Source: Nitrosovibrio sp. Nv4
Lineage (GTDB): Bacteria > Pseudomonadota > Gammaproteobacteria > Burkholderiales > SG8-39
Direction of reading: 5' to 3'
Assembly (NCBI GenBank): GCA_945906765.1
Contig: CAMDRF010000002.1
Location: forward strand, 2,313-66,312
Length of the DNA stretch: 64,000 nucleotides
The position numbers and the translations under genes are program-made. This document shows positions 1,377 through 59,496 of this stretch, one piece after another. The notes below the pieces were generated by a model that worked only from the letters and a program-made list of their open reading frames with translations, did no database searches and was not told the origin of the DNA. The stretch's first letter is position 1. Each line of letters begins with the position of its first letter.

Positions 1377-3086
1377 CTAACGCGGCGCCGCGGGCTCGAC
1401 GTTTTCGAGCGTCAGTTGCGGCCGCCTCAGGCCATTGAATTCGTTCACGCTCACGCGGTAGGCGGCGCGAATTCGGCCGTGAAGCGGGCCAGTGCGCGCC
1501 TCGAGCGCGTTGAACCACATCGCCTCCAGCCGTTGCCCGTCTTTCAGCAACCGCAGCTTGAGGTGTCGTTCGCCGACCACGCGCTGGTCCTGCACCGTGA
1601 AGGTGTCGCAGAACAGCGGCGGCGGAAATCCCTGGCCCCAGATCTGCGCTTCCAGCATCTGCGCCACTTCGAGCGAGTGGTAGGCGCTTTCCAGTTCACC
1701 GTCGGTCTCGACGACGCGCAGGCGTGCTGCATCTGGAAGTAGTTCTGCTGCCGTTGTTTCAAATAGATCCTGAAAAAGACCCAAATCCGACTCCCGGATG
1801 GTGAGTCCTGCTGCCTGAGCATGGCCGCCGAAGCGCAGGATCAATCCTGGCGCGCGTTTGGACACGAGATCGAGCGCATCGCGCAGATGAAACCCCGGAA
1901 TCGAACGGCCCGAGCCGCGCAGTTCACTTGAATTTGATCTTGCAAAACAAACGACAGGCCGGTGAATGCGTTCCCTCACGCGGGATGCAATCAGGCCGAC
2001 GACGCCCTGATGCCAGCCCGGCTGGAACATCGTCATCGTCGCCCCCGGCGGCTCGGCCAGTCCCTCAAGCGCAGCGCTCGCTTCGTCCAGCATCTCGCCT
2101 TCGATCTTGCGCCGCTCGCGGTTCAGGCGGTCGAGTTGCTGCGCGCAATTCGCGGCGCGGGCTTCGTCATCCGTGATCAGGCATTCGATGCCCAGGCCCA
2201 TGTCGGCGAGCCGGCCGGCGGCATTCAGCCGGGGTCCGAGTATGAAGCCGAGGTCGAAGCAGTTGGCCCGTGCCGCCTCGCGCCCGCCGGCGCGCGCCAG
2301 CGCGGTGAGGCCCGCCTTGCCGGTGCCTGCGCGCAGGCGCTTGAGTCCCTGTGCGACGAGTATCCGGTTGTTCGCGTCGAGCGGTACCACGTCGGCGACG
2401 GTGCCCAGCGCGACGAGGTCGGTCAGTGCGGCAAGATTGGGTTCTTGCCTGTCCTTGAAAACGCCCCTTTGCCGAAGTTCCGCGCGCAAAGACAACATCA
2501 CATAGAACATCACGCCGACGCCGGCGATCGCCTTGGACGGAAACCTGCAGCCCGGCTGGTTCGGGTTGACGATGCATTCGGCTTCCGGCAGGGTGTCGCC
2601 GGGCAGGTGGTGATCGGTGACCAGCGTCCCGATGCCGAGGCGCTTGGCGTGCGCCACGCCCTCGACGCTGGCGATGCCGTTGTCCACGGTAATCAGCAGG
2701 TCCGGCGCCAGCCTGGCGGCAATGTCCACCAGCTCCGGCGTCAGGCCGTAACCGAGCTCCATCCGGTTGGGCACCAGGTACTCAACCCGTGCGCCGAAGC
2801 CCCGCAGCGCCCGCACGCCCACCGCGCAGGCGGTGGCGCCGTCGGCGTCGTAGTCGGCGACGATGAGAAGTTTTTTCTGCTGCGCGATGGCATCGGCAAG
2901 CAGGCGTGCGGCGCGGTCGGCGTTGGTCAGGTCGGCGGGCGGAATCAGGCGCGAGAAATCCTGCTCCAGCTGGTCCTTGGAGCCGATGTGGCGCGCGGCG
3001 AACAGCCGGGCAAGCAGCGGATGCACGCCGGATTCGACGAGCCGGCTGCGGTCCGCCTCGGCATAGCGGCGTGTGACGATCTTCAA
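1377..3086 (-). CDS. recJ: single-stranded-DNA-specific exonuclease RecJ
   Basis: ORF 1377..3365 trimmed to TTG 3086 (MKIVTRRYAE..), about 569 aa. DHH-family motifs LIVADYDADGATA and LVTDHHLPG. The TTGA start/stop overlap with the upstream gene supports this start. Confidence 0.9.
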   Translation of the reverse strand: MKIVTRRYAEADRSRLVESGVHPLLARLFAARHIGSKDQLEQDFSRLIPPADLTNADRAARLLADAIAQQKKLLIVADYDADGATACAVGVRALRGFGARVEYLVPNRMELGYGLTPELVDIAARLAPDLLITVDNGIASVEGVAHAKRLGIGTLVTDHHLPGDTLPEAECIVNPNQPGCRFPSKAIAGVGVMFYVMLSLRAELRQRGVFKDRQEPNLAALTDLVALGTVADVVPLDANNRILVAQGLKRLRAGTGKAGLTALARAGGREAARANCFDLGFILGPRLNAAGRLADMGLGIECLITDDEARAANCAQQLDRLNRERRKIEGEMLDEASAALEGLAEPPGATMTMFQPGWHQGVVGLIASRVRERIHRPVVCFARSNSSELRGSGRSIPGFHLRDALDLVSKRAPGLILRFGGHAQAAGLTIRESDLGLFQDLFETTAAELLPDAARLRVVETDGELESAYHSLEVAQMLEAQIWGQGFPPPLFCDTFTVQDQRVVGERHLKLRLLKDGQRLEAMWFNALEARTGPLHGRIRAAYRVSVNEFNGLRRPQLTLENVEPAAPR

Positions 3087-4096
3087 ATGCCTGACTTTCC
3101 GTAGTTTGCGAGCGGCCGTGGCCGGCGCCAGAAACGGCGCAAGTCGCCGCGCGCTGTCTCGAAGGACGCGGCGGCGTCGGGAACGTGGATGGTCAGCATG
3201 CCGATGCGCCCCGATTTCAGCGCCGCGAGCAGCGGTGCGAACCATTGCGATTCCAGGTCCTGCAGCCGCCTCGCCAGCGCTTCGAAATCGCCCAGTGCAC
3301 GCACGCCGCGCAAGCCGTCGAGCACCAAGAGATGCCGCCCGTCTTCGGGCGCTCGCCCGAGCCAATCCGCGGCGCCGGCGCCCGGTGTCCGGTGGCGCAT
3401 TCCCGCAAGGCGTGCGAGGCCGATGGCGACCGGATCATCGGCGCTCACGGATTGCCAGGGGCCGCTCGCCGCGGCCGGCAGCTTTCCCGCGCCCCAGAGC
3501 CAGACGCTGTTGACCACCGGGTCGCCGCGCTGCTCGCGCGCCGTATTTGCCGGGTGTTCATACAGCGCCATCTGCAGTTCGGTGAGCAGGGGATGCCACT
3601 GTTTTGGCGGCAGATGCGGGTCGATGTTCTCGCCAGCGAGATCGACGGGAGGTTTCGCGCTGGCTTCGCTTTGCCCGTCAGCTTCGATCCGCAGGCACCA
3701 CTGATCGGGCCGCACCGCGTGCAGCGCAAATTTTCCGGCAAGCCATGGGGTCAACGCAGCCGCCAGGCTTTCCGCTTCCGCGGCCGTGACCGAAAACGCC
3801 TGGTTGGGCATCAGCAGCAGGCGGTCGCGGTCCGCGCGCAGGTGTACCGGGTCGGCACGCAGCCAGGGATCCGTGCCCGGGTCCAGGCCGTGCGCGTAGG
3901 CGGTGAGCGCGCCTGCGGGAATGGAAAGATCCTCAGCGTCGAACCCGTGCAAACCGAACGCCCGGCAAAGCCAGTTTTCCAGGCCGCCTTCCGGGCCGTT
4001 GGTCCGGCGGCTGCGCGCCAGCAACATCTCCAGCGCCGGCGCCGGCGGCAGGTCCTGCGCCGGGATCAGCGCCGGAACGACGAGTTCGAGATGCAT
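3083..4096 (-). CDS. conserved hypothetical protein (recalled as RpfE-type, a family often found next to recJ)
   Basis: ORF 3083..4522 trimmed to ATG 4096 (MHLELVVPALIPAQDLPP..), 337 aa. It is coupled to both neighbours: a TGATG overlap upstream and a TTGA overlap with recJ. The family name comes from memory only. Confidence 0.6.
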   Translation of the reverse strand: MHLELVVPALIPAQDLPPAPALEMLLARSRRTNGPEGGLENWLCRAFGLHGFDAEDLSIPAGALTAYAHGLDPGTDPWLRADPVHLRADRDRLLLMPNQAFSVTAAEAESLAAALTPWLAGKFALHAVRPDQWCLRIEADGQSEASAKPPVDLAGENIDPHLPPKQWHPLLTELQMALYEHPANTAREQRGDPVVNSVWLWGAGKLPAAASGPWQSVSADDPVAIGLARLAGMRHRTPGAGAADWLGRAPEDGRHLLVLDGLRGVRALGDFEALARRLQDLESQWFAPLLAALKSGRIGMLTIHVPDAAASFETARGDLRRFWRRPRPLANYGKSGI

Positions 4097-5535
4097 CAGT
4101 GGCGGACCGGTGGAATCCGCGCGCCCAGCTCGACCACCTTCGCGCGTCCTGATGAAAGGTGGCGCGCAAGAATTTTGTAGTGATCGAGGTCGAAGCGCGG
4201 CCGGATTTGTCCCTGGAGCAGTTCGCCGACGCCGTCTTCCGATTTCGCCGTACCGAGCAGGCACCAGTTGTCCACCACGTGCACTTCGGCGGCTTCCCGC
4301 TCGCGGTCTTCCTCGATGATGCCGATCGGCCCCCGCCAGGGCCAGGCGGCGGTTTTCAGGCCGGCCAGCGCCGCTGCGGCGCGCGCCAGATGGACCTGTG
4401 CGCTCTCCTGCCCGGCGCAGGCTCCGGCGCAGCGCTTGATCTGGTGGCGGAAACAGGCGCCGGGTTGGCCACTGCGGCCCCCCCGGTCGGAGAGATGCGC
4501 GAAGCCGAGCGTGCGCAGGCACAGGCGGTGCTCGTCCGCGACGCCGCGCAGGGCATCCATGGCGGATCGCTTCGAGCGGAACACGCCGCAGAGGCGCGAA
4601 ATAGTTGCCGAATTTATTTCCTCTTTTTTAACGAGTTTCAATTTATCCGAATCAAATACAAATCCACACAGGCCGCTCGCGCGCCTGAGCTGCCGGTTGA
4701 ACACGGGCAGCAGTTCCTTCACCAGCGCCGCTTCCAGCAGCAGCGCGCCCAGCTCGCCGCAGCTGCGCCGCCACTCGATGCGCCGGATCTCGCGCGCGAT
4801 CTGCGCCTCGCGCGGGGAGTGCACGTCGGCGGAGAAATGCTGCAACACGCGGCTGCGCATGGCGACGCTCTTGCCGACATAGAGCGGCGTGTCGTTCTCG
4901 CCGTAGAAAAGATAGACACCGGGCGATTCCGGGATCGCGTCGACGACTGTGCGGTCGATATGGGCGGGCAGCGCCGGCAACTGCGCCATCTGCCGTACCG
5001 CGCTTGCCATCGCCTCGGCGCCGTGCTCCTCGGTTGCCACGCGCAGGAACTGCCATACCGCCCTCGCATCGCCAAGCGCGCGGTGGCGCGAGTCGCAACG
5101 CAGTTGATGGCGGTCGATCAAGCTGTCCAGGTTGTGCCGCGCGTGTGCCGGATACAGGCGCCGCGACAGCTTTACCGTGCACAGCGTGCGTGCCTGGAAG
5201 CGCATCCCGGCGCGCTCGAAAGCGTGGCGCAGGAAGCCATAGTCGAAGCGCGCGTTGTGGGCGACGAAGATGCGCCCCTCGAGGCGTTCGTAGAGTCCCG
5301 GCGCGAGGTCTTCGAATTCCGGCGCGCCGGCCACCATCGCATTGGTGATGCCGGTGAGCGCCTGGATCGCGGGCGGGATCGAGGTGCCCGGATTCACCAG
5401 CGTGGACCATTCGGACAGCACCTCGCCCTGCGCAATCTCCAGCACCGCGATTTCGGTGACGCGATCCCAGGCAGGGTGCGCGCCGGTGGTCTCCAGGTCG
5501 ACGATCGCGAGCGGCGCGTCGAACAGCGGCTTCAC
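4096..5535 (-). CDS. DnaQ-like 3'-5' exonuclease fused to a GIY-YIG (Cho/UvrC-N-like) nuclease domain
   Basis: 479 aa. Exo motifs are LAIVDLETTG, VAHNARFDYGFL and HRALGDA. These are followed by GVYLFYGENDTPLYVGKS....R (GIY-YIG). Confidence 0.85.
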   Translation of the reverse strand: MKPLFDAPLAIVDLETTGAHPAWDRVTEIAVLEIAQGEVLSEWSTLVNPGTSIPPAIQALTGITNAMVAGAPEFEDLAPGLYERLEGRIFVAHNARFDYGFLRHAFERAGMRFQARTLCTVKLSRRLYPAHARHNLDSLIDRHQLRCDSRHRALGDARAVWQFLRVATEEHGAEAMASAVRQMAQLPALPAHIDRTVVDAIPESPGVYLFYGENDTPLYVGKSVAMRSRVLQHFSADVHSPREAQIAREIRRIEWRRSCGELGALLLEAALVKELLPVFNRQLRRASGLCGFVFDSDKLKLVKKEEINSATISRLCGVFRSKRSAMDALRGVADEHRLCLRTLGFAHLSDRGGRSGQPGACFRHQIKRCAGACAGQESAQVHLARAAAALAGLKTAAWPWRGPIGIIEEDREREAAEVHVVDNWCLLGTAKSEDGVGELLQGQIRPRFDLDHYKILARHLSSGRAKVVELGARIPPVRH

Positions 5536-5568
5536 GTCGCTTGATGGATATACATACAGTGGCGGACT

Positions 5569-6027
5569 CTACCGCAAAACCGTGGCGAGTTGCCAGAGCG
5601 CGAAGCCGAAGAGCGATTCGAGCGCCCTTTCTTCCGCAACGATCTGGAAGCGGTTCATGTAGCCGGCGAAAAAAAACAGCGCCGCGAGAGACAGAAGATT
5701 GGAAAGAAATATGCCCCAGCCGAGCAGCGCGAGCGCGAATCCGAGGTACATCGGGTTGCGCGTCAGGCCGTAGATGCCTCCGTCCACCAGCGAGGACGCG
5801 GCGCGGGGCTTGAGCGGATTCAGCGTGGTTCGCGCGCGGCGGAACTCGACAACGCCCGCGACAGTGGCCAGCGCGCCGATCAGCGCCGAGAGCACTGCCG
5901 CGGGCGTGCGGCCGGGGAGCGCCATATCCAGAGACGGAAGCGCCCACGCGATGGCCCACATCAGGCAGGCCGCGACGGCGACCACGATGACGGGGGGAAC
6001 CTTGAGTTCAAGCGACGAAAAATTCAT
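5569..6027 (-). CDS. isoprenylcysteine carboxyl methyltransferase (ICMT/PEMT-like) membrane protein
   Basis: 152 aa and multi-TM. The segment GIYGLTRNPMYLGFALALLGWG is typical of the ICMT/phospholipid methyltransferase family. Confidence 0.75.
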   Translation of the reverse strand: MNFSSLELKVPPVIVVAVAACLMWAIAWALPSLDMALPGRTPAAVLSALIGALATVAGVVEFRRARTTLNPLKPRAASSLVDGGIYGLTRNPMYLGFALALLGWGIFLSNLLSLAALFFFAGYMNRFQIVAEERALESLFGFALWQLATVLR

Positions 6028-6036
6028 GCCCCGATT

Positions 6037-6475
6037 TTATAGGGCGGCGATGATCCAGCCTTCGCAAAGGCAAACATCCGCAGGGATGCCAAAGCGTGGT
6101 TTTCTAGATGCCCAAGCGGCTTGGGTTGCGCAAAGAATTGCGTCCAGGATGTCCCCGGTTCCGTCCAGCAAGGCGCGGTCTCCAATTGCTTTCGATATCT
6201 GAACCGCTACGCCAAGAGACCTGGATAAGCTTCGAGAGCGATCTTGCCGGAAGCGGTTTCGTTCAGCAGTGGAATGCGAATGCCGTGAGAAAGCAGGCGC
6301 CAGGCTCCTTCATAGAACATTCTCCCGACGGGCGGGTTGGTATTTGTCTTGAGAGGGCTGTGCGATCCTGCCCTAAGGTCGGTACGACGGTGCTTGTCTT
6401 CTGGTGCCTTCGCCGCCATGAAGGCGCTCATCCCCGACTGAACCGTGCACGCGAGCTTTCCTCTCAGTTACCACC
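6037..6475 (-). pseudogene. DUF429 protein, middle and C-terminal fragments (frameshifted)
   Basis: The frame of ORF 6207..6431 gives ..EDKHRRTDLRAGSHSPLKTNTNPPVGRMFYEGAWRLL..KIALEAYPG. After the stop at 6207 a different frame continues ..GDILDAILCATQAAWASRKPRFGIPADVCLCEGWIIAAL*, ending at 6037. There is no N-terminus here. Confidence 0.6.
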
Positions 6476-6738
6476 CCGACATCGCCTGAAGCCGCCCGCG
6501 AGGAGGGCGGTCGTTTTCGCATGCGCCCGCGCTTGCGCGGGATTCCCACGCCGATTCCTTACCGCCAGGGGCGGGCGGCGCGGATAAATTTGCCCATCGC
6601 TCGGCGGAACTCGCGGCCAGCAGGAGAATCAGCCATGCGATGACCGATCCGGGGATGGCGTAGTATATCGGTTCACATTGTAAAATTTAGCGTGCCCGCC
6701 CCTATCCGATCGCGCCGCACAATCATCAGGGTTCCCGA

Positions 6739-7455
6739 ATGATCCGAACCGGTACGCTGGAAAAGGCGCGCGCCGAGCGCCGCCATCACATCCTTCCCAA
6801 CGGCACCGGGTACTGGCGCAACGGTTTGATCGCATCGCCGCCGGAGGACGCCGTCGCCCCGCAAGCCTTCCTGGTGGAGCAGGACCCCGGCACCGTGATC
6901 GAGCCGCATTTCCACCTGGAAAACGAATTCCAGGTGATGGTCGGCGGCAGCGGCTCGCTCGGACGGCATTGCGTCGAGCCCGTCAGCGTCCACTACGCCG
7001 GCGCGCATACCGGTTACGGGCCGATCACGGCGGGAAGCGACGGACTGTCCTACTTCACCCTGCGGGCACGGATGGACTCCGGCGCCCAGTTCCTGCCCGG
7101 CGCGCGCGACAAGATGCAACGAGTGCCCAAGCGGCATCTCCTCGGTCATGCCGTCCGTCCCTGCGAAGCGTCCGACCTGGCCGCGCGGCGCGAATCCGAA
7201 GTCGTCACGGTTCTCGAACCCGAGGCCGGCGGGATGGCCGCATGGATGCTCCGGCTTTCCGCCGGCGGCACCGCCGCCGCGCCGGTGCACCCGGGCGGCG
7301 GCCGCTTTCTGCTGGTCATCGGCGGCGTGCTGGAGCTGAACGGCGAGCGGCTGCCGCGGCTCTCGACGGTGTTCGTCTCCGCCGAATCGCCTGCGCCGCA
7401 GCTGCGCGCGGGCAACGAAGGCTTGGAGGTGCTGGTGCTGCAATTTCCGTCGTGA
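6739..7455 (+). CDS. cupin-fold protein, function unknown
   Basis: 238 aa. The metal-site-like stretch EPHFHLENEFQVMVGGSG suggests a cupin barrel. GTGA overlap with the next gene. Confidence 0.6.
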   Translation: MIRTGTLEKARAERRHHILPNGTGYWRNGLIASPPEDAVAPQAFLVEQDPGTVIEPHFHLENEFQVMVGGSGSLGRHCVEPVSVHYAGAHTGYGPITAGSDGLSYFTLRARMDSGAQFLPGARDKMQRVPKRHLLGHAVRPCEASDLAARRESEVVTVLEPEAGGMAAWMLRLSAGGTAAAPVHPGGGRFLLVIGGVLELNGERLPRLSTVFVSAESPAPQLRAGNEGLEVLVLQFPS

Positions 7456-14603: not shown

Positions 14604-15845
14604 GTGCGTTACGAGCTCCTCGTCGGCCTGCGCTACACCCGCGCCAAGCGCCGCAACCACTTCATCAGTTTCATTTCGGCGATCTCGATGGCGGGCATCG
14701 CGCTGGGGGTCGCCGCGCTGATCGTGGTGCTCTCGGTGATGAACGGCTTCCAGAAGGAACTGCGCGCCCGCATCCTCGGCGTCGCCTCGCACGTGCAGAT
14801 CAGCGGCCCGGACAACCAGCTCGCCGACTGGCAGTCGGTGGCGAAAATCGTCATGCAGGACCCGCGCGTCAAGGGCGCGGCGCCGTTCGTCAATGCGCAG
14901 GGGATGCTCGCGGCGGGCCAGGCGGTGCGCGGCAGCGTGGTGCGCGGCATCATTCCGCAGCGCGAGGCGCAGGTGGCGGAGATCGGCCTGCACATGCGCG
15001 CAGGCTCGCTCGAGGCGCTCAAGGCCGGCGAGTTCGGCATCGTGCTTGGCTCGGAGCTGGCGCGCGCGCTTGGCGCGCTGAGCGGAGACAAAGTGGCGTT
15101 GATCGCGCCGCAGGGACTGGTGACGCCGGCCGGCGTGATCCCGCGCCTGAAGCAGTTCACCGTGGTCGGCCTGTTCGAGGTCGGCATGTTCGAATACGAC
15201 TCCGGCCTCGCGCTGGTGCACCTGGAAGACGCGCAGAAGCTCTACCAGATGGGCGACGCGGTGTCGGGGGTGCGCTTGAGGCTGGACGATCTGTTCGCCT
15301 CGCGCTCGGTGGCGCGTGACCTGATAGCGAAGCTGGATCCTTCCTATTTCGCCACCGACTGGACGCGCAGCCACGCCAATTTTTTCCGCGCGGTGGAGAT
15401 CGAGAAGCGCGTGATGTTCATCATCCTGCTGCTGATCGTCGCGGTGGCGGCGTTCAACATCGTCTCCACGCTGGTGATGCTGGTGACCGACAAGCAGGCC
15501 GACATCGCGATCCTGCGCACGCTGGGGGCCTCGCCGGGTTCGATCGTGCAGATCTTCATGGTGCAGGGCGCGCTGATCGGCGTCATCGGCACCTTCGCGG
15601 GCCTGGTGCTCGGCGTGCTGGTCGGCTTCAACGTCGATACCGTGGTGCCCTTCGTCGAGAACCTGCTCGGCTTCAAGTTCCTCGCCAAGGACATCTACTA
15701 CATCTCCGACCTGCCCTCGGACGTGCAGCTGGGCGATGTGACGACCATCGGCATCGTCTCGCTGGTGCTGTCCTTCATCGCCACTTTGTACCCGAGCTGG
15801 CGCGCTTCCCGCACCAACCCGGCGGAGGCGCTCAGATATGAGTGA
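14604..15845 (+). CDS. lolC: lipoprotein-releasing ABC transporter permease LolC/LolE
   Basis: GTG 14604 ([25 protein letters not shown]..), 413 aa. MacB-like FtsX topology, followed by lolD with an 8-nt overlap. Confidence 0.9.
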
Positions 15846-16515
15846 CGTGGTGTTGTCCTGCCGTGGATTGAAGAAGACCTACCAGGGCCCGGCGCCCGTG
15901 CACGTCCTGCTGAACGTTGACCTGGAAGTGCGCGCGGGCGAGCGCGTCGCGATCATGGGCCGCTCGGGCTCCGGAAAGTCGACGCTGCTGCATCTGTTGG
16001 GTGGATTGGATTTTGCGACGGAAGGGGTTGTCGTGGTGCAGGGCAGGGCCTTGAACGAAATGTCCGAAAAAGAAAGAGGTAACACCAGAAACCGGACCCT
16101 CGGGTTCGTCTACCAGTTTCATCACCTGCTGCCCGAATTCACCGCGGAGGAGAACGTCGCCATGCCGCTCTGGATCCGGCGCATGGACCGCGGCACGGCG
16201 CTCGCCAAAGCCAGAGCCGCCCTGAAAGAAGTGGGTTTGGCGGCGCGCGCCGCGCACCTGCCGGGAGAACTCTCGGGCGGCGAGCGCCAGCGCTGCGCCT
16301 TCGCGCGCGCCATGGTCACCGCGCCCGCCTGCGTGCTGGCTGACGAACCCACCGGCAACCTCGATACGCAGACCGCGGACGAAGTGTTCGAAGCGATGGT
16401 GCGCCTTTCCAACGCGCACGGCACCGCCTTCGTGCTGGTGACCCATGATGCCGCCCTGGCCGCGCGCACCGAGCGCGTGCTCGAATTGAAGGACGGCGCC
16501 CTGCATCCGGCCTGA
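15838..16515 (+). CDS. lolD: lipoprotein-releasing ABC transporter ATP-binding protein LolD
   Basis: 225 aa. Walker [10 protein letters not shown], the LolD signature region [26 protein letters not shown], and Walker [11 protein letters not shown]. Confidence 0.92.
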
Positions 16516-16593
16516 TGCTGGTGCGGCGACTGTAGTTCGGGTTCGCCGCGTACTACGATGGTTTTTGCAGGCATGGCGAACTGTGGAGGCATC

Positions 16594-16918
16594 ATGGATG
16601 CGATTTCGGTGGAACAGCTCATCAAGGAGTCCGGGCAAGCTGATCGAGGGCGCCGAAAACGGCCAGCTTGCGGTGGTCACCAAGGCGGGCCGCCCGCTGT
16701 TTCTCGCCGTGCCTTACGACGAGCGCCTGGCGGAGGAGGATGTGCACGTCGCCGTCGCGGTGCGTCTGTACGAGAGCGACGCCGTGAGCCTCGGCAAGGG
16801 CGCGAGAATCGCGGGGCTTTCGACGAGCGAATTCATCGACTGGCTCGGCGCGCTGCAGATTCCCGTCATTCGCTATTCCGCCGAGGAGCTCGAGCGGGAA
16901 CTCGCCGCGTTTGGCTGA
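16594..16918 (+). pseudogene. Phd/YefM-like plus UPF0175-like fused antitoxin, frameshifted near 16633
   Basis: ATG 16594 gives MDAISVEQLIKESG, then the frame must shift to continue KLIEGAENGQLAVVTKAGRPLFLAVPYDE (Phd pattern). Next comes ..LYESDAVSLGKGARIAGLSTSEFIDWLGALQIPV (UPF0175 pattern). The span is 325 nt, which is not a multiple of 3. An in-frame ATG at 16598 could still express an N-terminally scrambled product. Confidence 0.6.
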
Positions 16919-16955
16919 GATCGTCGTCGCGGACGCGGGGCCGCTGATTGCGTTC
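16911..16955 (+). pseudogene. 15-codon stub of a DUF3368-type PIN toxin
   Basis: TTG 16911 overlaps the antitoxin stop and encodes MAEIVVADAGPLIAF, the typical PIN/DUF3368 N-terminus. Similarity ends exactly where the CRISPR-like repeat begins. Confidence 0.5.
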
Positions 16956-16984
16956 GTGTTCCCCGCGTGCGCGGGGATGAACCA
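16956..16984 (+). repeat. solitary type I-E-like CRISPR repeat (no array)
   Basis: GTGTTCCCCGCGTGCGCGGGGATGAACCA is 29 nt. It has the same architecture as the recalled E. coli I-E repeat GAGTTCCCCGCGCCAGCGGGGATAAACCG: a CCCCGC/GCGGGG stem, a 4-nt loop and an AT(G/A)AACC tail. I saw no second copy in the window. Confidence 0.6.
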
Positions 16985-17123
16985 TCGGCCTGAACGGCGC
17001 GATCCTGGGCTACGTGATCTCGATCGAGCGGCGCCTGACGCGCCTTGAGACTTTCCAGGAGGTCCGGCGCGCGCCGCGCCAGGCGGCGGTACAATGATTC
17101 CCTTCGATCCGGTAGGGGGTTCG

Positions 17124-17282
17124 ATGAGCAAAGCACCGAAGCAAAAAGCGAGCGCGCGCCGCGGCGGCCGCGTGCACTACGTGACGATCCGCGGCAAGAA
17201 AATCAAGACCACGGCACGAGGGGCGCGTATGTTTCGCGCTGTCACGCGGGCGCTGAAGGGCGTAGACGTACCGCCGCCTTGA
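17124..17282 (+). CDS. small basic protein in the antitoxin position upstream of vapC (unclassified)
   Basis: ATG 17124 (MSKAPKQKASARRGGRVHYVTIRGKK..), 52 aa. Its stop overlaps the vapC TTG start as TTGA. No recognisable antitoxin fold. Confidence 0.4.
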   Translation: MSKAPKQKASARRGGRVHYVTIRGKKIKTTARGARMFRAVTRALKGVDVPPP

Positions 17283-17684
17283 TCTACCTCGTTGATGCAA
17301 ACGTCCTGGTGCACCTGGCCAACCGGGTGTCCGGGTCCGAGCGCATACTCGCCCGGTATGACGCGCAGCCGCGCGGCCGGGTGCGGCTTTCCGCCGCGAC
17401 GGCGCACGAGCTGCGCTTCATGATCCTGATGGCGAAGGCCTCCGCGAAGCACGTCGCGAGCCTCGACTCGATCGCGCGCGCGTATCCGGTCGAGCCCTTC
17501 GAGCTGGCCGCGGCCGCACGCCGCGGCCGACGTGCGGTATCAGCTCGAAATCGCCGGCAAACGGCTGGGCATCTTCGACATGCTGCTCGCGGGTCATGCG
17601 CGGTGCTTGGGCGCCACGGTGGTCAGCGATGATGCGGACTTTGACCGGGTGCCCGGCCTGAAAACCGAAAACTGGCTGCGCTGA
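17279..17684 (+). pseudogene. vapC: PIN-domain toxin VapC, frameshifted near 17520
   Basis: LIYLVDANVLVHL...SAATAHELRF...VEPFELAAAA is in one frame and ..ADVRYQLEIAGKRLGIFDMLLAGHARCLGATVVSDDADFDRVPGLKTENWLR* in another. The span is 406 nt (3n+1). All four PIN acidic positions are recognisable. Confidence 0.75.
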
Positions 17685-17712
17685 GCGCGGCCGCGGGGCA
17701 CGAACTCAGCGT

Positions 17713-17907
17713 TCACCGCTTGCCGTGGTTTGCGATCAGTGCGCGAATCTTCGCGAAGACTTCCTCGGCCGGGATGCCTTTGGTGTTTCCAGCCTCGAAG
17801 TCGGTGATGCGCCGGGAAATTTCCTCATCCCACGCCCGCGCGATTTCCTCCGGCGCGCCCTCCGGTTCGCCGTCGATGCTCTCGATCACCGTGCCAGCCA
17901 ACTGCAA
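17713..17907 (-). CDS. Unstab_antitox (TIGR02574-like) addiction-module antitoxin, N-terminally shortened, no toxin partner
   Basis: ..PEEIARAWDEEISRRITDFEAGNTKGIPAEEVFAKIRAL aligns with the C-terminal two thirds of the neighbouring paralog at 18027..18251. The N-terminal helix is missing and no toxin gene lies downstream. Confidence 0.55.
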   Translation of the reverse strand: MQLAGTVIESIDGEPEGAPEEIARAWDEEISRRITDFEAGNTKGIPAEEVFAKIRALIANHGKR

Positions 17908-17911
17908 TGTC

Positions 17912-18026
17912 GCTTCGCCCAGTAATCCGGTCGCCGGCTAGGGTGAGCGAGCGCAAGAACGTCAAGTACATCGCCGCGGACGCGATAAATCGGCGTGTAC
18001 GGAAATCGCTTGAATACGAAACCGCT
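17912..18026 (-). pseudogene. C-terminal fragment of a RelE/ParE-family toxin
   Basis: Directly after the antitoxin stop the same frame reads SGFVFKRFPYTPIYRVRGDVLDVLALAHPSRRPDYWAKR, the conserved RelE/ParE C-terminus. The N-terminal half is missing. Confidence 0.6.
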
Positions 18027-18251
18027 TCAACGCAGCTTGGCGCGCAGCCCCGCCATAAGCTGTTCGGAAGGAATGGTTTCGACCTCTCCGCTGTCGATCT
18101 GCGCGATGCGGCGTTCGATCTCGGCGTCCCAGGCGGCCGCCACCTCTTCAGGCGTGTCGACGCTTATCCAGAGCTTGTCGGCGAGATCGGCGCGTTCCTC
18201 CGCGGAGAGCCGCATCGCTTCGGCGGCAATTTGTTCGTAGGTGAGTGACAT
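18027..18251 (-). CDS. Unstab_antitox (TIGR02574-like) addiction-module antitoxin
   Basis: ATG 18251 (MSLTYEQIAAEAMRLSAEERADLADKLWISVDTPEEVAAAWDAEIERRIAQIDSGE..), 74 aa. Confidence 0.75.
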   Translation of the reverse strand: MSLTYEQIAAEAMRLSAEERADLADKLWISVDTPEEVAAAWDAEIERRIAQIDSGEVETIPSEQLMAGLRAKLR

Positions 18252-18370
18252 AACCGCTCCTTGAGGCGAAAGCTTGCCCGGAATTCTATTCCGGATTGGA
18301 AGGAATTTCAGCCTATGCCAGAACCCAGCGGCGAGTCGAGAGACCCGATGCCGATTTCCGCCCTTTCGCA

Positions 18371-20185
18371 CTAGACGGGCTTGTCCGCGGCGTTGCCGGC
18401 CTTCGCGTTGAGCGCCGCCTCGTCCTCGCGCAAGGTCCGGGCGAACTGGTCGCGCAGTTCGTTGGATACGGAGACGTTGGCGTCCGGGCCGCTTTTGTGC
18501 ACGCTGTACAGCTTGGCCAGCACCACGTCGTCATGTTCGGCGAAGCTCTGTATCGCGCGCGCCGCGCGCTCGGCATCGGCGCCCACGGCCGCCAAGGTCG
18601 CCCGGCCCAGCGCCAGCGCCGACTGGAAGGTCTCGCGCTCGATGATCTCGACGCCGATGTCGCGCAACTCGAACAGGTGGCGCATGTCGTGCGCCCGCGC
18701 GATGATCCTGAGTTTCGGGAAATTTTTGGCCGCCGTCCTCGCCAGACCCGTGGTCGCTACCGGGTCATTCAGCGTGATGATGAGAAAGTCGGCCTGCGCG
18801 GCGCCCGCTGCCTGCAGCAGGTCGAGCCGCGTGGCGTCGCCGTAGAACACGCGAAAGCCGAAGCGCCGTGACTGCTCGACGTGGTCGGGATCGTCGTCGA
18901 GGATGGTCGGCTCGTAGCCGCTGCCATGCAGCAGGCGCGCGACCACCTGGCCGACGCGCCCGAGTCCGGCGACGATGACCTTGCTCGGTTCGGGCGGCAG
19001 GTGCGTACGCTCCGGCGCCTTGCCGGTGAAGCGCGGCGCCAGCACGCGGTCGTGGAATACCAGCAGGAAGGGTGTCGAGAGCATGGACAGCGCCACCGCC
19101 AGCGTCATTGCCTGCGCGGTCGCCAAGGGCAGCACCTCGCGCTGCACGCCGAGCGTCAGCAGCACGAACGCGAACTCGCCGCCCTGCGCGAGCAGCAGGA
19201 TGAACAGCGGCCGCTCGCTCGGCGGCAGCTTCGCGAAACGCGCGATCGCCCAGAGCACCGCGCTCTTGAGGACGAACAGGCCGACGATCAGGCCGGCGAT
19301 GAGCAGCGGCCTGTCGAGCAACAGCCCGAAATCGACGCTCATGCCGACCGCGATGAAGAACAGGCCAAGCAGCAGGCCCTTGAAGGGCTCCACCGCCGCC
19401 TCGATTTCGTGACGGTACTCGGATTCGGCGAGCAGCACGCCGGCGAGAAACGTACCAAGCGCCATCGACAGGCCCGCGGACTCGAAGCCCCAGGCGATTC
19501 CCAGCACCAGCAGCAGCGCAAAGGCGGTGAAAATCTCGCGTTGCCGGGTGCGCGCGATGTGGCGGAATACCGGCTGGGCGAGGAAGTGTCCGCCGACGAG
19601 CGTGGCGGCGATCACGGCGCCGGCAAACCCCAGGCCGCCCCAGGAAAAGCTCGCGCCGGCGCCGGCCGCCCCCAGCAACGGCAGCAGCGCCAGCATCGGG
19701 ATCACGGCGATGTCCTGGAACAGCAGGATGGCGAATACCGCCTGGCCGCCCTTGTTTTGCAGTGCCCCGCGCTCCCTGAGCGGCTGCAATGCCAGCGCGG
19801 TCGAGGACAGGGCGAGCGCCATTCCGGCAACGATACCCAAGCGCAGGTCGATGCCCGCGGCCCAGGCCACCGCGGCGATCAGCGCGATTGAGCCCGCGAC
19901 CTGCGATACGCCCAGCGACAGCAGCCGGGCACGCATGCTCCAGAGGCGCTTGGGCTCCAGCTCCAGGCCGATGACGAAGAGCAGGAACACCACGCCCAGT
20001 TCGGCGATGTGGCGCACGTCCTCGACTTTTTCGACCAGCTTCAAGCCGAAGGGGCCGATGGCGATGCCGGCGAGCAGGTAGCCCGCCACCGAGCCCAGTC
20101 CCAGGCGGTGCGAAAACACCACCGCGAGCACCGCCGAGGCGAGAAACACCACGCTCTGGATCAGGTAGCCGCTGACGTGCTCCAT
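18371..20185 (-). CDS. CPA2-family monovalent cation:proton antiporter, KefB/KefC-like, with C-terminal RCK/TrkA-N domain
   Basis: ORF trimmed to ATG 20185 (MEHVSGYLIQSVVFLAS..), 604 aa. About 12 TM segments, then VIVAGLGRVGQVVARLL (Rossmann/RCK). Confidence 0.85.
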   Translation of the reverse strand: MEHVSGYLIQSVVFLASAVLAVVFSHRLGLGSVAGYLLAGIAIGPFGLKLVEKVEDVRHIAELGVVFLLFVIGLELEPKRLWSMRARLLSLGVSQVAGSIALIAAVAWAAGIDLRLGIVAGMALALSSTALALQPLRERGALQNKGGQAVFAILLFQDIAVIPMLALLPLLGAAGAGASFSWGGLGFAGAVIAATLVGGHFLAQPVFRHIARTRQREIFTAFALLLVLGIAWGFESAGLSMALGTFLAGVLLAESEYRHEIEAAVEPFKGLLLGLFFIAVGMSVDFGLLLDRPLLIAGLIVGLFVLKSAVLWAIARFAKLPPSERPLFILLLAQGGEFAFVLLTLGVQREVLPLATAQAMTLAVALSMLSTPFLLVFHDRVLAPRFTGKAPERTHLPPEPSKVIVAGLGRVGQVVARLLHGSGYEPTILDDDPDHVEQSRRFGFRVFYGDATRLDLLQAAGAAQADFLIITLNDPVATTGLARTAAKNFPKLRIIARAHDMRHLFELRDIGVEIIERETFQSALALGRATLAAVGADAERAARAIQSFAEHDDVVLAKLYSVHKSGPDANVSVSNELRDQFARTLREDEAALNAKAGNAADKPV

Positions 20186-57297: not shown

Positions 57298-59496
57298 ATG
57301 GTTTCCGTCGTCCAGCTTCATCCACAGTCCGGCGCTGCCGCGATCGGACTGCTCGCCCAGGGGCTGGCGGCGCCCGAGCGCGACCTGGTCGCGCGCGCGC
57401 TTGAATTTGCCGAGCCGCTCTATGCGGGCCAGACACTCTCGACGGGCGAGCCGGTGTGGCCGCACGCGCTCGGGCTTGCCTCGAGCCTTGCCGCCATCGG
57501 CATGGATCCGGCGGCGCGCGCCGCCGGCATCCTGTTCGCCGCGCCGAAGCATCTCGATGGTGTGGACCGGCTGCAGGAGGTCTTCGGGCCGGAAATCGCG
57601 GCGCTCGCCGGCGGCGTGGAGAAGCTCCATCAGCTGCGGGTGCTGACGCGGGCCGCGCCCGGCGAGCAGAACGAAATCCTGCGCAAGATGGTGCTCGGCA
57701 TGGTCGAGGACATCCGCGTGGTGCTGATCCGGCTTGCTTCTCGTACGCAGACGCTGCGCTGGTTCGCGAAGCATCCTTCTGACGGGAGAAAGGCCTACGC
57801 GCGCGAATCGCTCGACATTTACTCGCCGCTGGCCAACCGGCTCGGCGTCTGGCAGCTCAAGTGGGAGCTGGAAGACCTGTCGTTCCGCTACCTCGAGCCC
57901 GAGCTGTACAAGAAGATCGCGCAGATGCTGGATGAAAAGCGCATCGAGCGGAAACACTACATTTCGAATGCTATTGAAATACTGGGAAATGAACTGAGAA
58001 AAACAGGTTTGAAAGCCGAGGTTACCGGACGTCCGAAGCACATCTATTCCATCTGGAACAAGATGCGCGTCAAGCAGCTCGACTTCTCCGATGTGCACGA
58101 CGTGCGCGCGCTGCGCGTCATCGTGCCTACGCCGGGCGAGTGTTTCAGCGTGCTGGGCATCGCGCACGACTTATGGGAGCCGATTCCGAAGGAGTTCGAC
58201 GACTATATCTCGCGGCCCAAGGGCAACAACTACCAGTCGCTGCATACGGCGGTGATCGGACCCGGCGGCCGCACGCTTGAAGTGCAGATCCGCACCGAGG
58301 AAATGCATCGCCAGGCGGAATTCGGCATCGCGGCGCACTGGCGTTACAAAGAAAGCAGAAAAACGTCGAAAGCAGAAGGCGCCTTCGACAACAAGATCGC
58401 CTGGCTGAGAGAGCTGCTGGCGTGGCGCGATGAAGTCGCGGACGGCGCGGGATGGGCCGAGAAAACGAAAAGGGCGTCCCTCGACGACACCATCTACGTC
58501 GTTACGCCGCAGGGCAAGGTGATCGATCTGCCGGCCGGCGCTACGCCGGTCGACTTCGCCTACACCCTGCACACCGATCTCGGCCACCGCTGCCGCGGCG
58601 CAAAGGTCGATGGGGCGCTGGTTTCGCTTGAAACTCCCTTACATAGCGGCCAGCGCGTGGAGATCGTCGCCGCGAAGAGCGGCGGGCCGTCGCGCGACTG
58701 GCTGAACCCCGCGCTCGGTTTCCTGAAAAGCCACCGCGCGCGCGGCAAGGTGCGGCAGTGGTTCAACGCGCAGCAGCTCGCCGAGACCGTCGCGCAGGGC
58801 CGCGCCACGGTGGAAAAGGAGCAGCGGCGCGAGGGCGCGATGCAGGCCAATCTCGAGCAGCTTGCGCAGAAGCTCGGTTTCGCCAAGCACGACGAACTGT
58901 TCGCCGCGGTGGCGCGCGACGAGGTCAATCTGCGTAAATTGCAGGCGGCGCTGCGGCAACTGGTGGGGTCTGTTGTTCATCCTTCTGAGGACGTTCAACC
59001 CGGGAAAATAAAGAGAAGCAAACCCAAATCCGGTTCGGACGGCGGCATTCTCGTCGTCGGCGTGGACCGGCTGATGACGCAGCTCGCCAGGTGCTGCAAG
59101 CCGGTGCCGCCGGACCCGGTGCGCGGCTTCGTTACGCGCGGCAAGGGCGTCTCGGTGCACCGCGAGGACTGTGCCGGCCTCAAGCGCCTGGCTGAGCGCA
59201 GTCCCGAGCGGCTGATCGATGCGCAATGGGGGACAAGTGCCAAGGCGGGCGTGCGCTCCGACGGGCTTTACCCGGTGGACGTTCTGGTGACGGCCTCGGA
59301 TCGCCAGGGACTGCTGCGCGACATCGGCGAGGCGCTGGCGCGCGAGCGCATCAACGTCACTGCGGTGCGCACGCAGAGCCGCAGCGACCTCGCGCACATG
59401 CGCTTCAGCTTCGAGGTGGCGGATGTCGCCCACCTGAGGCGCGCGTTCGCTGCGGTGAAGGACGTCAGCGGCGTAATCCGGGTGGGCAGAGGGTAG
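57298..59496 (+). CDS. relA: GTP pyrophosphokinase RelA ((p)ppGpp synthetase I)
   Basis: 732 aa. Degenerate HD region (no HD dyad), synthetase motifs GRPKHIYSIWNKM and YQSLHTAV, and TGS and ACT domains. Confidence 0.9.
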   Translation: MVSVVQLHPQSGAAAIGLLAQGLAAPERDLVARALEFAEPLYAGQTLSTGEPVWPHALGLASSLAAIGMDPAARAAGILFAAPKHLDGVDRLQEVFGPEIAALAGGVEKLHQLRVLTRAAPGEQNEILRKMVLGMVEDIRVVLIRLASRTQTLRWFAKHPSDGRKAYARESLDIYSPLANRLGVWQLKWELEDLSFRYLEPELYKKIAQMLDEKRIERKHYISNAIEILGNELRKTGLKAEVTGRPKHIYSIWNKMRVKQLDFSDVHDVRALRVIVPTPGECFSVLGIAHDLWEPIPKEFDDYISRPKGNNYQSLHTAVIGPGGRTLEVQIRTEEMHRQAEFGIAAHWRYKESRKTSKAEGAFDNKIAWLRELLAWRDEVADGAGWAEKTKRASLDDTIYVVTPQGKVIDLPAGATPVDFAYTLHTDLGHRCRGAKVDGALVSLETPLHSGQRVEIVAAKSGGPSRDWLNPALGFLKSHRARGKVRQWFNAQQLAETVAQGRATVEKEQRREGAMQANLEQLAQKLGFAKHDELFAAVARDEVNLRKLQAALRQLVGSVVHPSEDVQPGKIKRSKPKSGSDGGILVVGVDRLMTQLARCCKPVPPDPVRGFVTRGKGVSVHREDCAGLKRLAERSPERLIDAQWGTSAKAGVRSDGLYPVDVLVTASDRQGLLRDIGEALARERINVTAVRTQSRSDLAHMRFSFEVADVAHLRRAFAAVKDVSGVIRVGRG

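Follow-up and report, generated by a model that had tools for sequence, protein, structure and literature searches.

A single repeat that is, by its sequence, a genuine type I-E CRISPR repeat (GTGTTCCCCGCGTGCGCGGGGATGAACCA, 29 nt) lies at positions 16956-16984 (+) of the 64-kb stretch of DNA analyzed here (hereafter the window), where it exactly bridges the 5′ stump of a PIN toxin gene and the 3′ stump of a small membrane-protein gene. We consider that this solitary repeat is probably a non-functional relic, or recombination scar, of a lost type I-E array, embedded in mosaic defence-island debris.

The repeat is the sole match in the window at up to three mismatches, a threshold at which shuffled sequences led us to expect none. 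In a permissive scan, the second-closest 29-mer proved to be the repeat's own reverse complement (10 mismatches), and every other site differed at 11 or more positions. No degenerate neighbouring repeat or mini-array was found, since the sequences located 60-62 nt to either side carry 17-22 mismatches, which is the random level. There is accordingly no array at 16956-16984, in the sense of two or more repeats with a spacer of ~32 nt between them; the locus instead holds a solitary repeat as defined in PMC10651486, without a partial repeat within 100 nt. RNA folding of the repeat yields a CCCCGC/GCGGGG stem of six G-C pairs with a closing U-A pair and a loop of 4 nt (GUGC), which is the stable, GC-rich hairpin with a four-base loop expected of type I-E repeats. 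The repeat sits 45 nt into the PIN toxin stump, within a chimeric ORF of 45 aa. The same junction can be found in five further contigs, namely one from an NCBI MAG (L001), one from an ENA assembly (L002) and three from Logan assemblies of three sequencing runs (L003, L011 and L012).

We searched for exact copies of the first 28 nt of the repeat in one genome per species (185,579 species). The 28-mer was recovered in 29 stretches from ~20 unrelated genomes belonging to several phyla, and nearly all of these stretches are regular arrays with a spacing of 61 nt, the largest being an array of 81 copies in Tepidiphilus succinatimandens. Among the spacer units (position 29 plus spacer) extracted from these arrays, 457 of 521 measure 33 nt. 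The arrays in L021 and L023 are preceded by genes for Cas5, Cse3/Cas6e (PF08798), Cas1 and Cas2-CT1978, which together represent the type I-E gene set. The window repeat shares with type I-E repeats the conserved 5′ GTGTTCCCCGC and 3′ GGGGAT(G/A)AACC(G) sequences, and is identical to the array repeats at 28/28 nt. It departs from them only in its last base. Position 29 is most often G in real arrays (G 324, T 8, A 5, C 2; n = 339 copies) and is A in the window, where the same base (A16984) is also the first base of homology to the gene on the right flank. The final G of a type I-E repeat derives from the PAM. Most of the recovered real arrays share a leader of the ...cggtagg...ggaaga type; no leader of this kind is present at the window repeat, which has PIN coding sequence upstream of it. 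A dispersed, REP-like family was rejected as the source of the repeat because only one copy occurs in 64 kb, and because the 28-mer elsewhere forms arrays with a 61-nt period beside the type I-E genes for Cas5, Cas6e, Cas1 and Cas2. The first-pass annotation had described a lone, leaderless 29-nt repeat of type I-E character with a CCCCGC/GCGGGG hairpin, and had named membership of an abundant REP-like family as grounds for giving up this reading. Its description holds in each of these respects, and no such family emerged from either the 64 kb or the 28-mer search.

The window is ordinary chromosome that carries recJ, lolCD, kefC, comEC, propionate and aconitase genes, TRAP transporters, spoT and thrS. 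The repeat lies between two core genes (Table 1). In relatives L049, L053 and L062, lolD is directly followed by kefC in convergent orientation, ~100 nt away. The DNA of L049, which was the best relative in a metagenome synteny search (85% LolD identity), aligns to the window until 16496 and resumes at 18414. Because lolD and kefC are only ~100 nt apart in the closest relatives, we interpret the intervening DNA of the window as an inserted island, which the first-pass annotation had not recognized. No CRISPR-Cas locus was found between lolD and kefC in the relatives recovered through LolD, a point that counts against the array-relic reading. The island is chromosomal and present in every sampled strain.

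Table 1. Features of the island and of its borders (window coordinates).
Feature	Position	Strand	Evidence
lolD (ABC ATPase), core gene, left bound of island	15838..16515	+	Pfam ABC_tran
Inserted island, ~1.85 kb, with decayed toxin-antitoxin (TA), phage and cas fragments	16516..18372		Absent from closest relatives found
UPF0175/Phd-type antitoxin gene, frameshifted	16594..16918	+	Pfam UPF0175 E=2e-15
DUF3368 PIN toxin 5′ stump, TTG start + 14 codons (MAEIVVADAGPLIAF)	16911..16955	+	100% identity to L004 PIN
Solitary CRISPR repeat	16956..16984	+	
Small membrane-protein gene 3′ stump, ~37 codons + stop	16984..17097	+	Homologues P0101-P0106
Small ORF, 62 aa, in antitoxin position of VapBC-like pair	17094..17282	+	No Pfam match
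VapC (PIN) toxin pseudogene, frameshifted near 17518	17279..17684	+	Pfam PIN
Orphan antitoxin (Unstab_antitox), no toxin partner	17713..17907	-	Pfam PF09720 E=1e-9
Second orphan antitoxin (Unstab_antitox)	18027..18251	-	Pfam PF09720 E=1e-13
cas4 5′ remnant, 19 codons (MPEPSGESRDPMPISALSH; 18315-18371) + stop	18315..18374	+	L130 alignment, profile matches
kefC-type K+/H+ antiporter, core gene, right bound of island	18371..20185	-	Pfam Na_H_Exchanger/TrkA_N/KefB_C (gene called in L011) and synteny

Most TA genes of the island are damaged or orphaned: the UPF0175 antitoxin and VapC are frameshifted, the DUF3368 PIN toxin is reduced to 15 codons, and two antitoxins are without a toxin. No toxin ORF is found downstream of the first orphan antitoxin, and the second, which is called as a 74-aa gene in L011, is 89% identical to its counterpart in L130. 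When the island DNA was compared with plasmids and phages, only a distant TA match on a Thiodictyon plasmid was obtained. A tRNA or att-type island boundary was not found, and the only tRNA is 43 kb away. No complete cas gene was detected in the window, either by Pfam searches of ~50 window genes or by tblastn with the ORFs that flank real type I-E arrays. The island is of mobile-element origin and persists as a 1.85-kb chromosomal remnant without a phage or plasmid backbone; it is a mosaic of defence-island and mobile-element debris.

The left junction of the repeat interrupts the first TA module. Its antitoxin gene carries a +1-nt insertion at 16624/16625 that is visible in the alignment with homologues, and is still open as a 106-aa ORF from an alternative ATG at 16598; many homologues of 107 aa exist, which cover only 92% of the window ORF. 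The adjoining toxin stump matches residues 1-15 of L004's intact PIN protein (163 aa) with 100% identity, and no counterpart of residues 16-163 was found in the rest of the window. L004, L006, L008 and L009 have a complete DUF3368 PIN gene (163-172 aa) behind the antitoxin; in L007 this gene is called as two ORFs, and in L010 no PIN gene is called. The DNA of L004 and of L006-L010 (88-95% identical) aligns to the window until 16956 and then diverges completely. Including L130, all seven loci that have the antitoxin together with the start or the whole of the PIN gene end their homology at 16956, which bears out at the DNA level the earlier claim that PIN similarity stops at the first base of the repeat. 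The alignment of L005 stops at 16929, because the contig ends there. Base G16956 is common to the PIN gene and the repeat.

A second gene breakpoint coincides with the right edge of the repeat, where homology starts at 16984; the first-pass annotation had correctly placed the repeat at the breakpoint of the PIN gene but had missed this one. A reading frame at 16981-17094, which begins within the repeat, shows a strong GC bias at third codon positions, like coding sequence in this genome. Searching with this frame recovered six small proteins (P0101-P0106; 47-53 aa) of a rare gene, which share a hydrophobic N-terminus followed by SIERRLTRLET, and the stump in the window is without ~10 N-terminal codons. 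At the DNA level, homology to the membrane-protein gene starts at 16984 in L013-L017 and at 16991 in L018 and L019. Between the two gene stumps, 27 nt (16957-16983) are explained by neither flank, with one ambiguous base at each end (G16956 and A16984).

The stop codon of the membrane-protein stump overlaps the ATG of the 62-aa ORF, which in turn precedes the VapC pseudogene; in the latter, positions 1-78 and 82-119 of the Pfam PIN model are matched in two different reading frames. The order of a small membrane-protein gene, an ORF of 65-67 aa and a PIN gene is also seen in L016 and L017, and is the same as that of window positions 17094-17684; in L018 and L019, a PIN gene comes next after the small membrane-protein gene, and no intervening ORF is called. 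The small membrane-protein gene closes a phage-like structural module (P2 capsid domains, Collar, DUF1353) in L013 and L014, and one distant relative is encoded in a viral contig. The DUF3368 PIN gene and the small membrane-protein gene are neighbours in no intact locus that we recovered.

At its far end, the island carries the start of a cas4 gene, which is cut at the island/kefC boundary and which tblastn places in the window with E=5e-6. The first-pass annotation had reported no cas genes, and this stands for complete genes but not for the 19-codon remnant at 18315-18371. The remnant came to light through an antitoxin homologue (P0079) that bears a JGI ‘Cas4’ annotation and is located on a contig of 929 nt (L130). 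Positions 1-313 of L130 correspond to window positions 18060-18372 (89.5% identity), a segment that takes in the second orphan antitoxin, the intergenic DNA and the first codons of an ORF (MPEP..ISALQH) that extends in L130 to codon 47 as a Cas4 N-terminus. Positions 394-644 of L130 correspond to window positions 16706-16956 (94% identity), comprising the 3′ part of the UPF0175 antitoxin gene and the start of the PIN gene, which in L130 runs on beyond the breakpoint in the window. The two ends of the window island, the truncated cas4 (cas4') and the antitoxin-PIN module, are thus adjacent in L130, making it a circularly permuted relative. The 47-aa fragment from L130 matched NF049935 cas4g_cas1g (E=5e-5), TIGR00372 cas4 (E=0.01) and PF01930 (E=0.06), scores that are mutually consistent and that are weak because the fragment is short. 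A search with the cas4 fragment returned 45 protein clusters, all of 40-83 aa and none of full length, with differing truncation points. In the contexts recovered, the cas4 stump elsewhere sits among other TA genes.

In one sister island with the cas4'-TA arrangement (L133), a type I-E array begins ~130 nt past the neighbouring TA pair; it consists of four copies of the repeat GTGTTCCCCACGCACGTGGGGATGAACCG at ~61-nt spacing. The sister contigs L131, L132 and L134 end where the L133 array starts. The L133 locus shows that such islands do adjoin type I-E arrays. Cas4 is not part of type I-E systems, so the remnant points to a CRISPR-rich ancestry and not to a type I-E locus as such. The contiguity of the cas4 remnant with the antitoxin-PIN module in L130 and the array in L133 both count for a CRISPR ancestry of the island DNA.

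These observations can be accommodated if the island DNA once adjoined, or recombined with, a type I-E array, as the sister island still does. Recombination between direct repeats would then have collapsed the array to one copy, and the flanking DNA would have been joined through the array itself, either by way of an abnormally long insert or through homology of spacer length. The two outer junctions differ from the repeat ends by no more than 1 nt. Type I-E Cas1-Cas2 cuts at position 1 of the repeat and after position 28, and base 29 is supplied by the incoming DNA. The membership of A16984 in the flanking gene agrees with this rule, and the location of both junctions at the Cas1-Cas2 cut sites leads us to infer that the flanks were joined via an array and not by random breakage. 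If deletion ends were random, two junctions exact to 1 nt would be expected at a frequency of ~(2-3/61)^2, or roughly 0.1-0.3% by a rough estimate, so that decay by simple deletion does not on its own account for the anatomy of the locus. The array stage is inferred and not observed, and no contig was found in which the PIN stump or the membrane-protein stump lies beside a multi-repeat array. The first-pass annotation had offered three explanations: a last survivor of a deleted array, a repeat acquired by illegitimate recombination, and an orphan repeat still processed by Cas6e. The first of these fits best, in view of the cas4 remnant and the L133 array, and illegitimate recombination alone fits poorly, given that the junctions are at the repeat ends within 1 nt and the parental sites are not repeat-like.

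Orphan and vestigial arrays that shrink by repeat-repeat recombination offer a close parallel to an array relic. They resemble the window in having a bona fide repeat without a cas operon, here in the company of a cas4 stump and a sister-island array. They differ in that the window is without leader, trailer or spacer, and in that its repeat abuts gene fragments on both sides to the nucleotide.

Other routes to the same anatomy were considered. We rejected microhomology or a pseudo-repeat at the parental sites, whose resemblance to the repeat does not exceed background: the PIN site ranks among the top 13% of windows, and the site in the membrane-protein gene does not stand out. Off-target recognition of a pseudo-repeat is unsupported because the parental sites are no more repeat-like than this. 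Integron attC or IS200-type hairpin recombination was dropped, since the junction is not at a G|TT core. An improbable alternative is that a deletion spanning the PIN and membrane-protein genes was sealed by one-off end joining, with a stray, repeat-sized filler of 27-29 nt unrelated to any nearby array. Microhomology of only 0-1 nt per junction is typical of end joining, and the island has no leader, spacer or type I-E cas gene. Such a filler, however, would have had to be a full-length repeat with zero extra bases, and the island is tied independently to CRISPR loci through the cas4 remnant and the L133 array. We know of no process that releases free DNA of exactly repeat length, and mature type I-E crRNAs bear split repeat halves and no intact repeat.

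It is also conceivable, though we regard it as rather doubtful, that the flanks are two adjacent former spacers against the PIN and membrane-protein genes, and that homologous recombination or gap repair copied a spacer-repeat-spacer unit into the targeted element, deleting the DNA between the protospacers. A single copying step of this kind would produce both exact boundaries and the lone repeat, and recombination between solitary repeat units (SRUs) and arrays has already been proposed (PMC10651486). The genes on either flank belong to mobile elements and are hence plausible CRISPR targets, and a leaderless set of four repeats in L026 is also bounded by apparent mobile-element gene fragments. 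The would-be PAMs are TCG (left) and TGA (right), however, and not AAG, the PAM expected from E. coli type I-E. The base after the 28-mer, A in the window, is G in 324 of the 339 copies in real arrays and A in only five; none of the 521 spacers matches the island or related phage-like loci beyond chance 13-19-mers; and the absence of any intact locus with the two genes as neighbours also weighs against this route. Two related processes have reportedly been described, namely ectopic spacer integration that makes mini-arrays and phage-array recombination through spacers. Both resemble the window in having junctions exactly on repeat boundaries. Ectopic integration differs in duplicating a local pseudo-repeat and not a canonical repeat, with the parental sites of the window at background level, and spacer-mediated recombination predicts proper PAMs, which are absent from the window.

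An artefactual origin, by which the junction would be a metagenome assembly chimera or the repeat a member of a REP-like family that merely resembles a CRISPR repeat, is very improbable indeed. The window comes from a metagenome-type assembly, in which the longest contig that carries its LolD protein measures 71.9 kb, and the repeat is palindromic like REP elements, but the same junction recurs in the five other contigs from separate assemblies, and 29 nt would be too short to mis-join contigs built at k=141, as the k141_ names of the ENA contigs imply. With one copy in 64 kb, a second-best site at 10 or more mismatches, and a 28-mer that is the repeat of cas-associated arrays, this reading is effectively refuted.

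A further reading, to which we give little weight, is that the CRISPR adaptation machinery produced a DNA circle of which the repeat would mark the joint. In this model, a kilobase-sized defence-island fragment, with one end inside the membrane-protein gene and the other inside the PIN gene, would enter a type I-E array at the two positions where Cas1-Cas2 cuts one of its repeats, as a giant ‘spacer’. Recombination of the two flanking repeats would free a circle closed by one repeat (PIN'-R-'membrane gene), which would re-insert between lolD and kefC after being opened between cas4' and the antitoxin. The model would account for both exact junctions, the single repeat, and the adjacency of cas4' and antitoxin-PIN in L130. 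A candidate trace of the opening of the circle, the hexanucleotide TGGTGC at the left island edge (16519-16524) that matches cas4 codons 20-21, was set aside as too short to count.

The repeat is most likely inert now, a scar. A consensus scan for promoters of the sigma-70 type and for intrinsic terminators found neither in 16400-17400. In an Rfam search, only a tRNA was found in the window at the gathering threshold, and 16850-17100 gave no match at E<=1. Transcription of the repeat would occur solely within a chimeric antitoxin-PIN' read-through RNA, and the antitoxin promoter may still drive transcription across the repeat. Cas6e could cut such an RNA only given a matching type I-E system elsewhere in the genome.

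Solitary repeats of another kind have been described as RNA anti-CRISPRs (Racrs), which occur on viruses and plasmids, where they are intergenic, follow a promoter directly and form clusters with acr genes (PMC10651486), and type I-E examples of which have been tested (Camara-Wilpert et al., 2023, PMC10651486). The window repeat resembles SRUs and Racrs (PMC10651486; Faure et al., 2019, cited there) in being one full-length repeat with an intact hairpin, without adjacent cas genes, in DNA derived from a mobile element. It differs in being neither intergenic nor promoter-proximal, in having no acr neighbour, and in joining two gene stumps in a decayed chromosomal island; of the Racr traits, it clearly shows only that of being solitary. 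We consider it quite improbable that the repeat is a working unit of this kind, a Racr or decoy that is expressed from the antitoxin promoter and binds Cas6e and Cas7 of a type I-E system elsewhere, titrating Cas proteins from real crRNAs. The single, perfect repeat with its intact hairpin, the mobile-element origin of the island, the lack of nearby cas genes and the precedent of tested type I-E examples would all suit such a role, as would the right-flank gene, which closes the phage-like structural module in L013 and L014. Against it, the repeat lies in a chimeric ORF, 45 nt inside a toxin-gene stump, with no promoter-like site in 16400-17400 and no match to an anti-CRISPR family among the neighbouring ORFs that were scanned. 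The neighbouring genes are decaying, every sampled strain carries the island as a fixed part of its chromosome, and the exact 28-mer has no match in 2.9 million viral contigs.

A further comparison can be made with stand-alone, repeat-like regulatory RNAs, the crRNA-like RNAs such as CreA of CreTA (Shmakov et al., 2023, PMC10120712; bioRxiv 10.1101/2024.01.05.574328). These are described as lying within functional cas loci and as carrying a partial spacer with complementarity to a promoter or a toxin gene. The window shares with them a stand-alone repeat beside toxin-antitoxin genes, and differs in having no cas operon, in a repeat that is canonical and not degenerate, and in TA genes that are decaying, ordinary type II modules.

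Two other leaderless occurrences of the 28-mer were noted among the genomes searched. In Tepidiphilus olei (L029), one solitary copy is located ~570 nt from an array with a different, 37-nt repeat, and its left flank is weakly similar to a fragment of a phage virion-morphogenesis gene (E=0.004). In a gammaproteobacterial MAG (L026), four copies occur without a typical leader, and the last repeat also ends in A; on one side lies what looks like the 3′ end of a gene on the minus strand, located upstream of a DUF2513 gene, and on the other a DUF3489 gene. L026 and L029 hint that scars of this type may also exist elsewhere.

Two forms of solitary CRISPR repeat are known, anti-CRISPR RNAs carried by phages and plasmids, and remnants of arrays that have been lost. 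The repeat in the window contributes little on the functional side, since it looks dead. Its architecture is unusually clean, with a canonical repeat that has no spacer or leader and whose junctions with two unrelated gene stumps are exact to within 1 nt, near a cas4 stump and with a circularly permuted relative (L130) known. Such scars record recombination between arrays and mobile elements and the decay of defence islands. If scars with exact boundaries prove to be common, they would point to a boundary-aware process, integrase- or spacer-mediated, that moves or deletes large pieces of DNA; to our knowledge, boundary-aware movement of this kind has not been described in natural genomes. The circle model, if true, would mean that CRISPR repeats and integrases occasionally mobilise large DNA pieces.

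The island of about 1.85 kb inserted between lolD and kefC has a permuted relative in the metagenome contig L130 (929 nt), of which positions 1-644 were compared with window positions 18060-18372 and 16706-16956. In L130, an orphan antitoxin and the 5' remnant of cas4, which make up the right end of our island, are directly joined to the antitoxin-PIN module that makes up its left end, so that our island is a circular permutation of the arrangement in L130. We also observed the sequence TGGTGC at window positions 16519-16524, immediately past the lolD stop codon; it corresponds to cas4 codons 20-21, which are the bases that come next after the cas4 stump in L130. Such a residue would be expected of a circle opened within cas4, and its 6 nt are too short to serve as evidence.

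The island is a graveyard of toxin-antitoxin genes, which are listed with the other gene remnants in the table below. Homologues of the cas4 N-terminal fragment form 45 protein clusters in public data, each of 40-83 aa and with differing truncation points; none of the 45 includes a full-length member.

Decayed genes and gene remnants of the island (window positions)
Feature	Position	Strand	Remarks
UPF0175 antitoxin	16594-16918		+1 nt insertion at 16624/16625
Small membrane-protein gene stump	16984-17097		homologues P0101-P0106
VapC PIN gene	17279-17684		frameshift near 17518
Unstab_antitox antitoxins (two, without toxins)	17713-17907 and 18027-18251	minus
cas4 5' stump (19 codons)	18315-18374	plus	adjoins kefC stop codon

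The small membrane protein whose gene stump forms the right flank of the solitary repeat has a length of 47-53 aa and the motif LNGAILAYVISIERRLTRLET; only six clusters of it occur among 5.8 billion proteins, which makes it very rare. Its gene is directly followed by a PIN/VapC-type toxin gene in four contigs, in two of which a small ORF is called between the two genes, and it is preceded by a DUF1353 gene in three contigs (L013-L015). The membrane-protein gene is the last of a phage-like structural module in L013 and L014.

A type I-E array (2854-3066) begins approximately 130 nt past a cas4'-PIN-antitoxin island in the contig L133, and its repeat is related to that of the window (25 of 29 nt identical). 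Three sister contigs (L131, L132 and L134) terminate where the array starts in L133; variable arrays are frequent stopping points of assemblies.

Copies of the window's repeat were also found in other genomes. A second truly solitary copy occurs in Tepidiphilus olei (L029, 2638-2665, minus strand). An array whose repeat is 37 nt long (3231-4901, plus strand) lies some 570 nt away from it; at two places in this array (3665-3812 and 4107-4254), a repeat-spacer unit is directly followed by an identical one. Another locus, L026, carries a mini-array of four copies (5039-5251) at which a typical leader is absent. On one side, this mini-array borders what looks like the 3' end of a gene on the minus strand, which lies upstream of a DUF2513 gene; its neighbour on the other side is a DUF3489 gene. 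The final repeat of the mini-array ends in A, as does the window copy.

In an Alkalilimnicola MAG (L046), the gene immediately upstream of a type I-E array is a RelA/SpoT homologue (5151-7392), so that cas genes are likewise missing from the leader side of this array; the homologue is 47% identical to the spoT of the window (57298-59496).

The DNA downstream of lolD differs among relatives (L050-L077). In some, kefC, DUF2062 or comEC directly follows lolD, while others carry 1-4 kb of other DNA at this position, such as the 4.4 kb in L056. The site after lolD seems to be prone to insertions.
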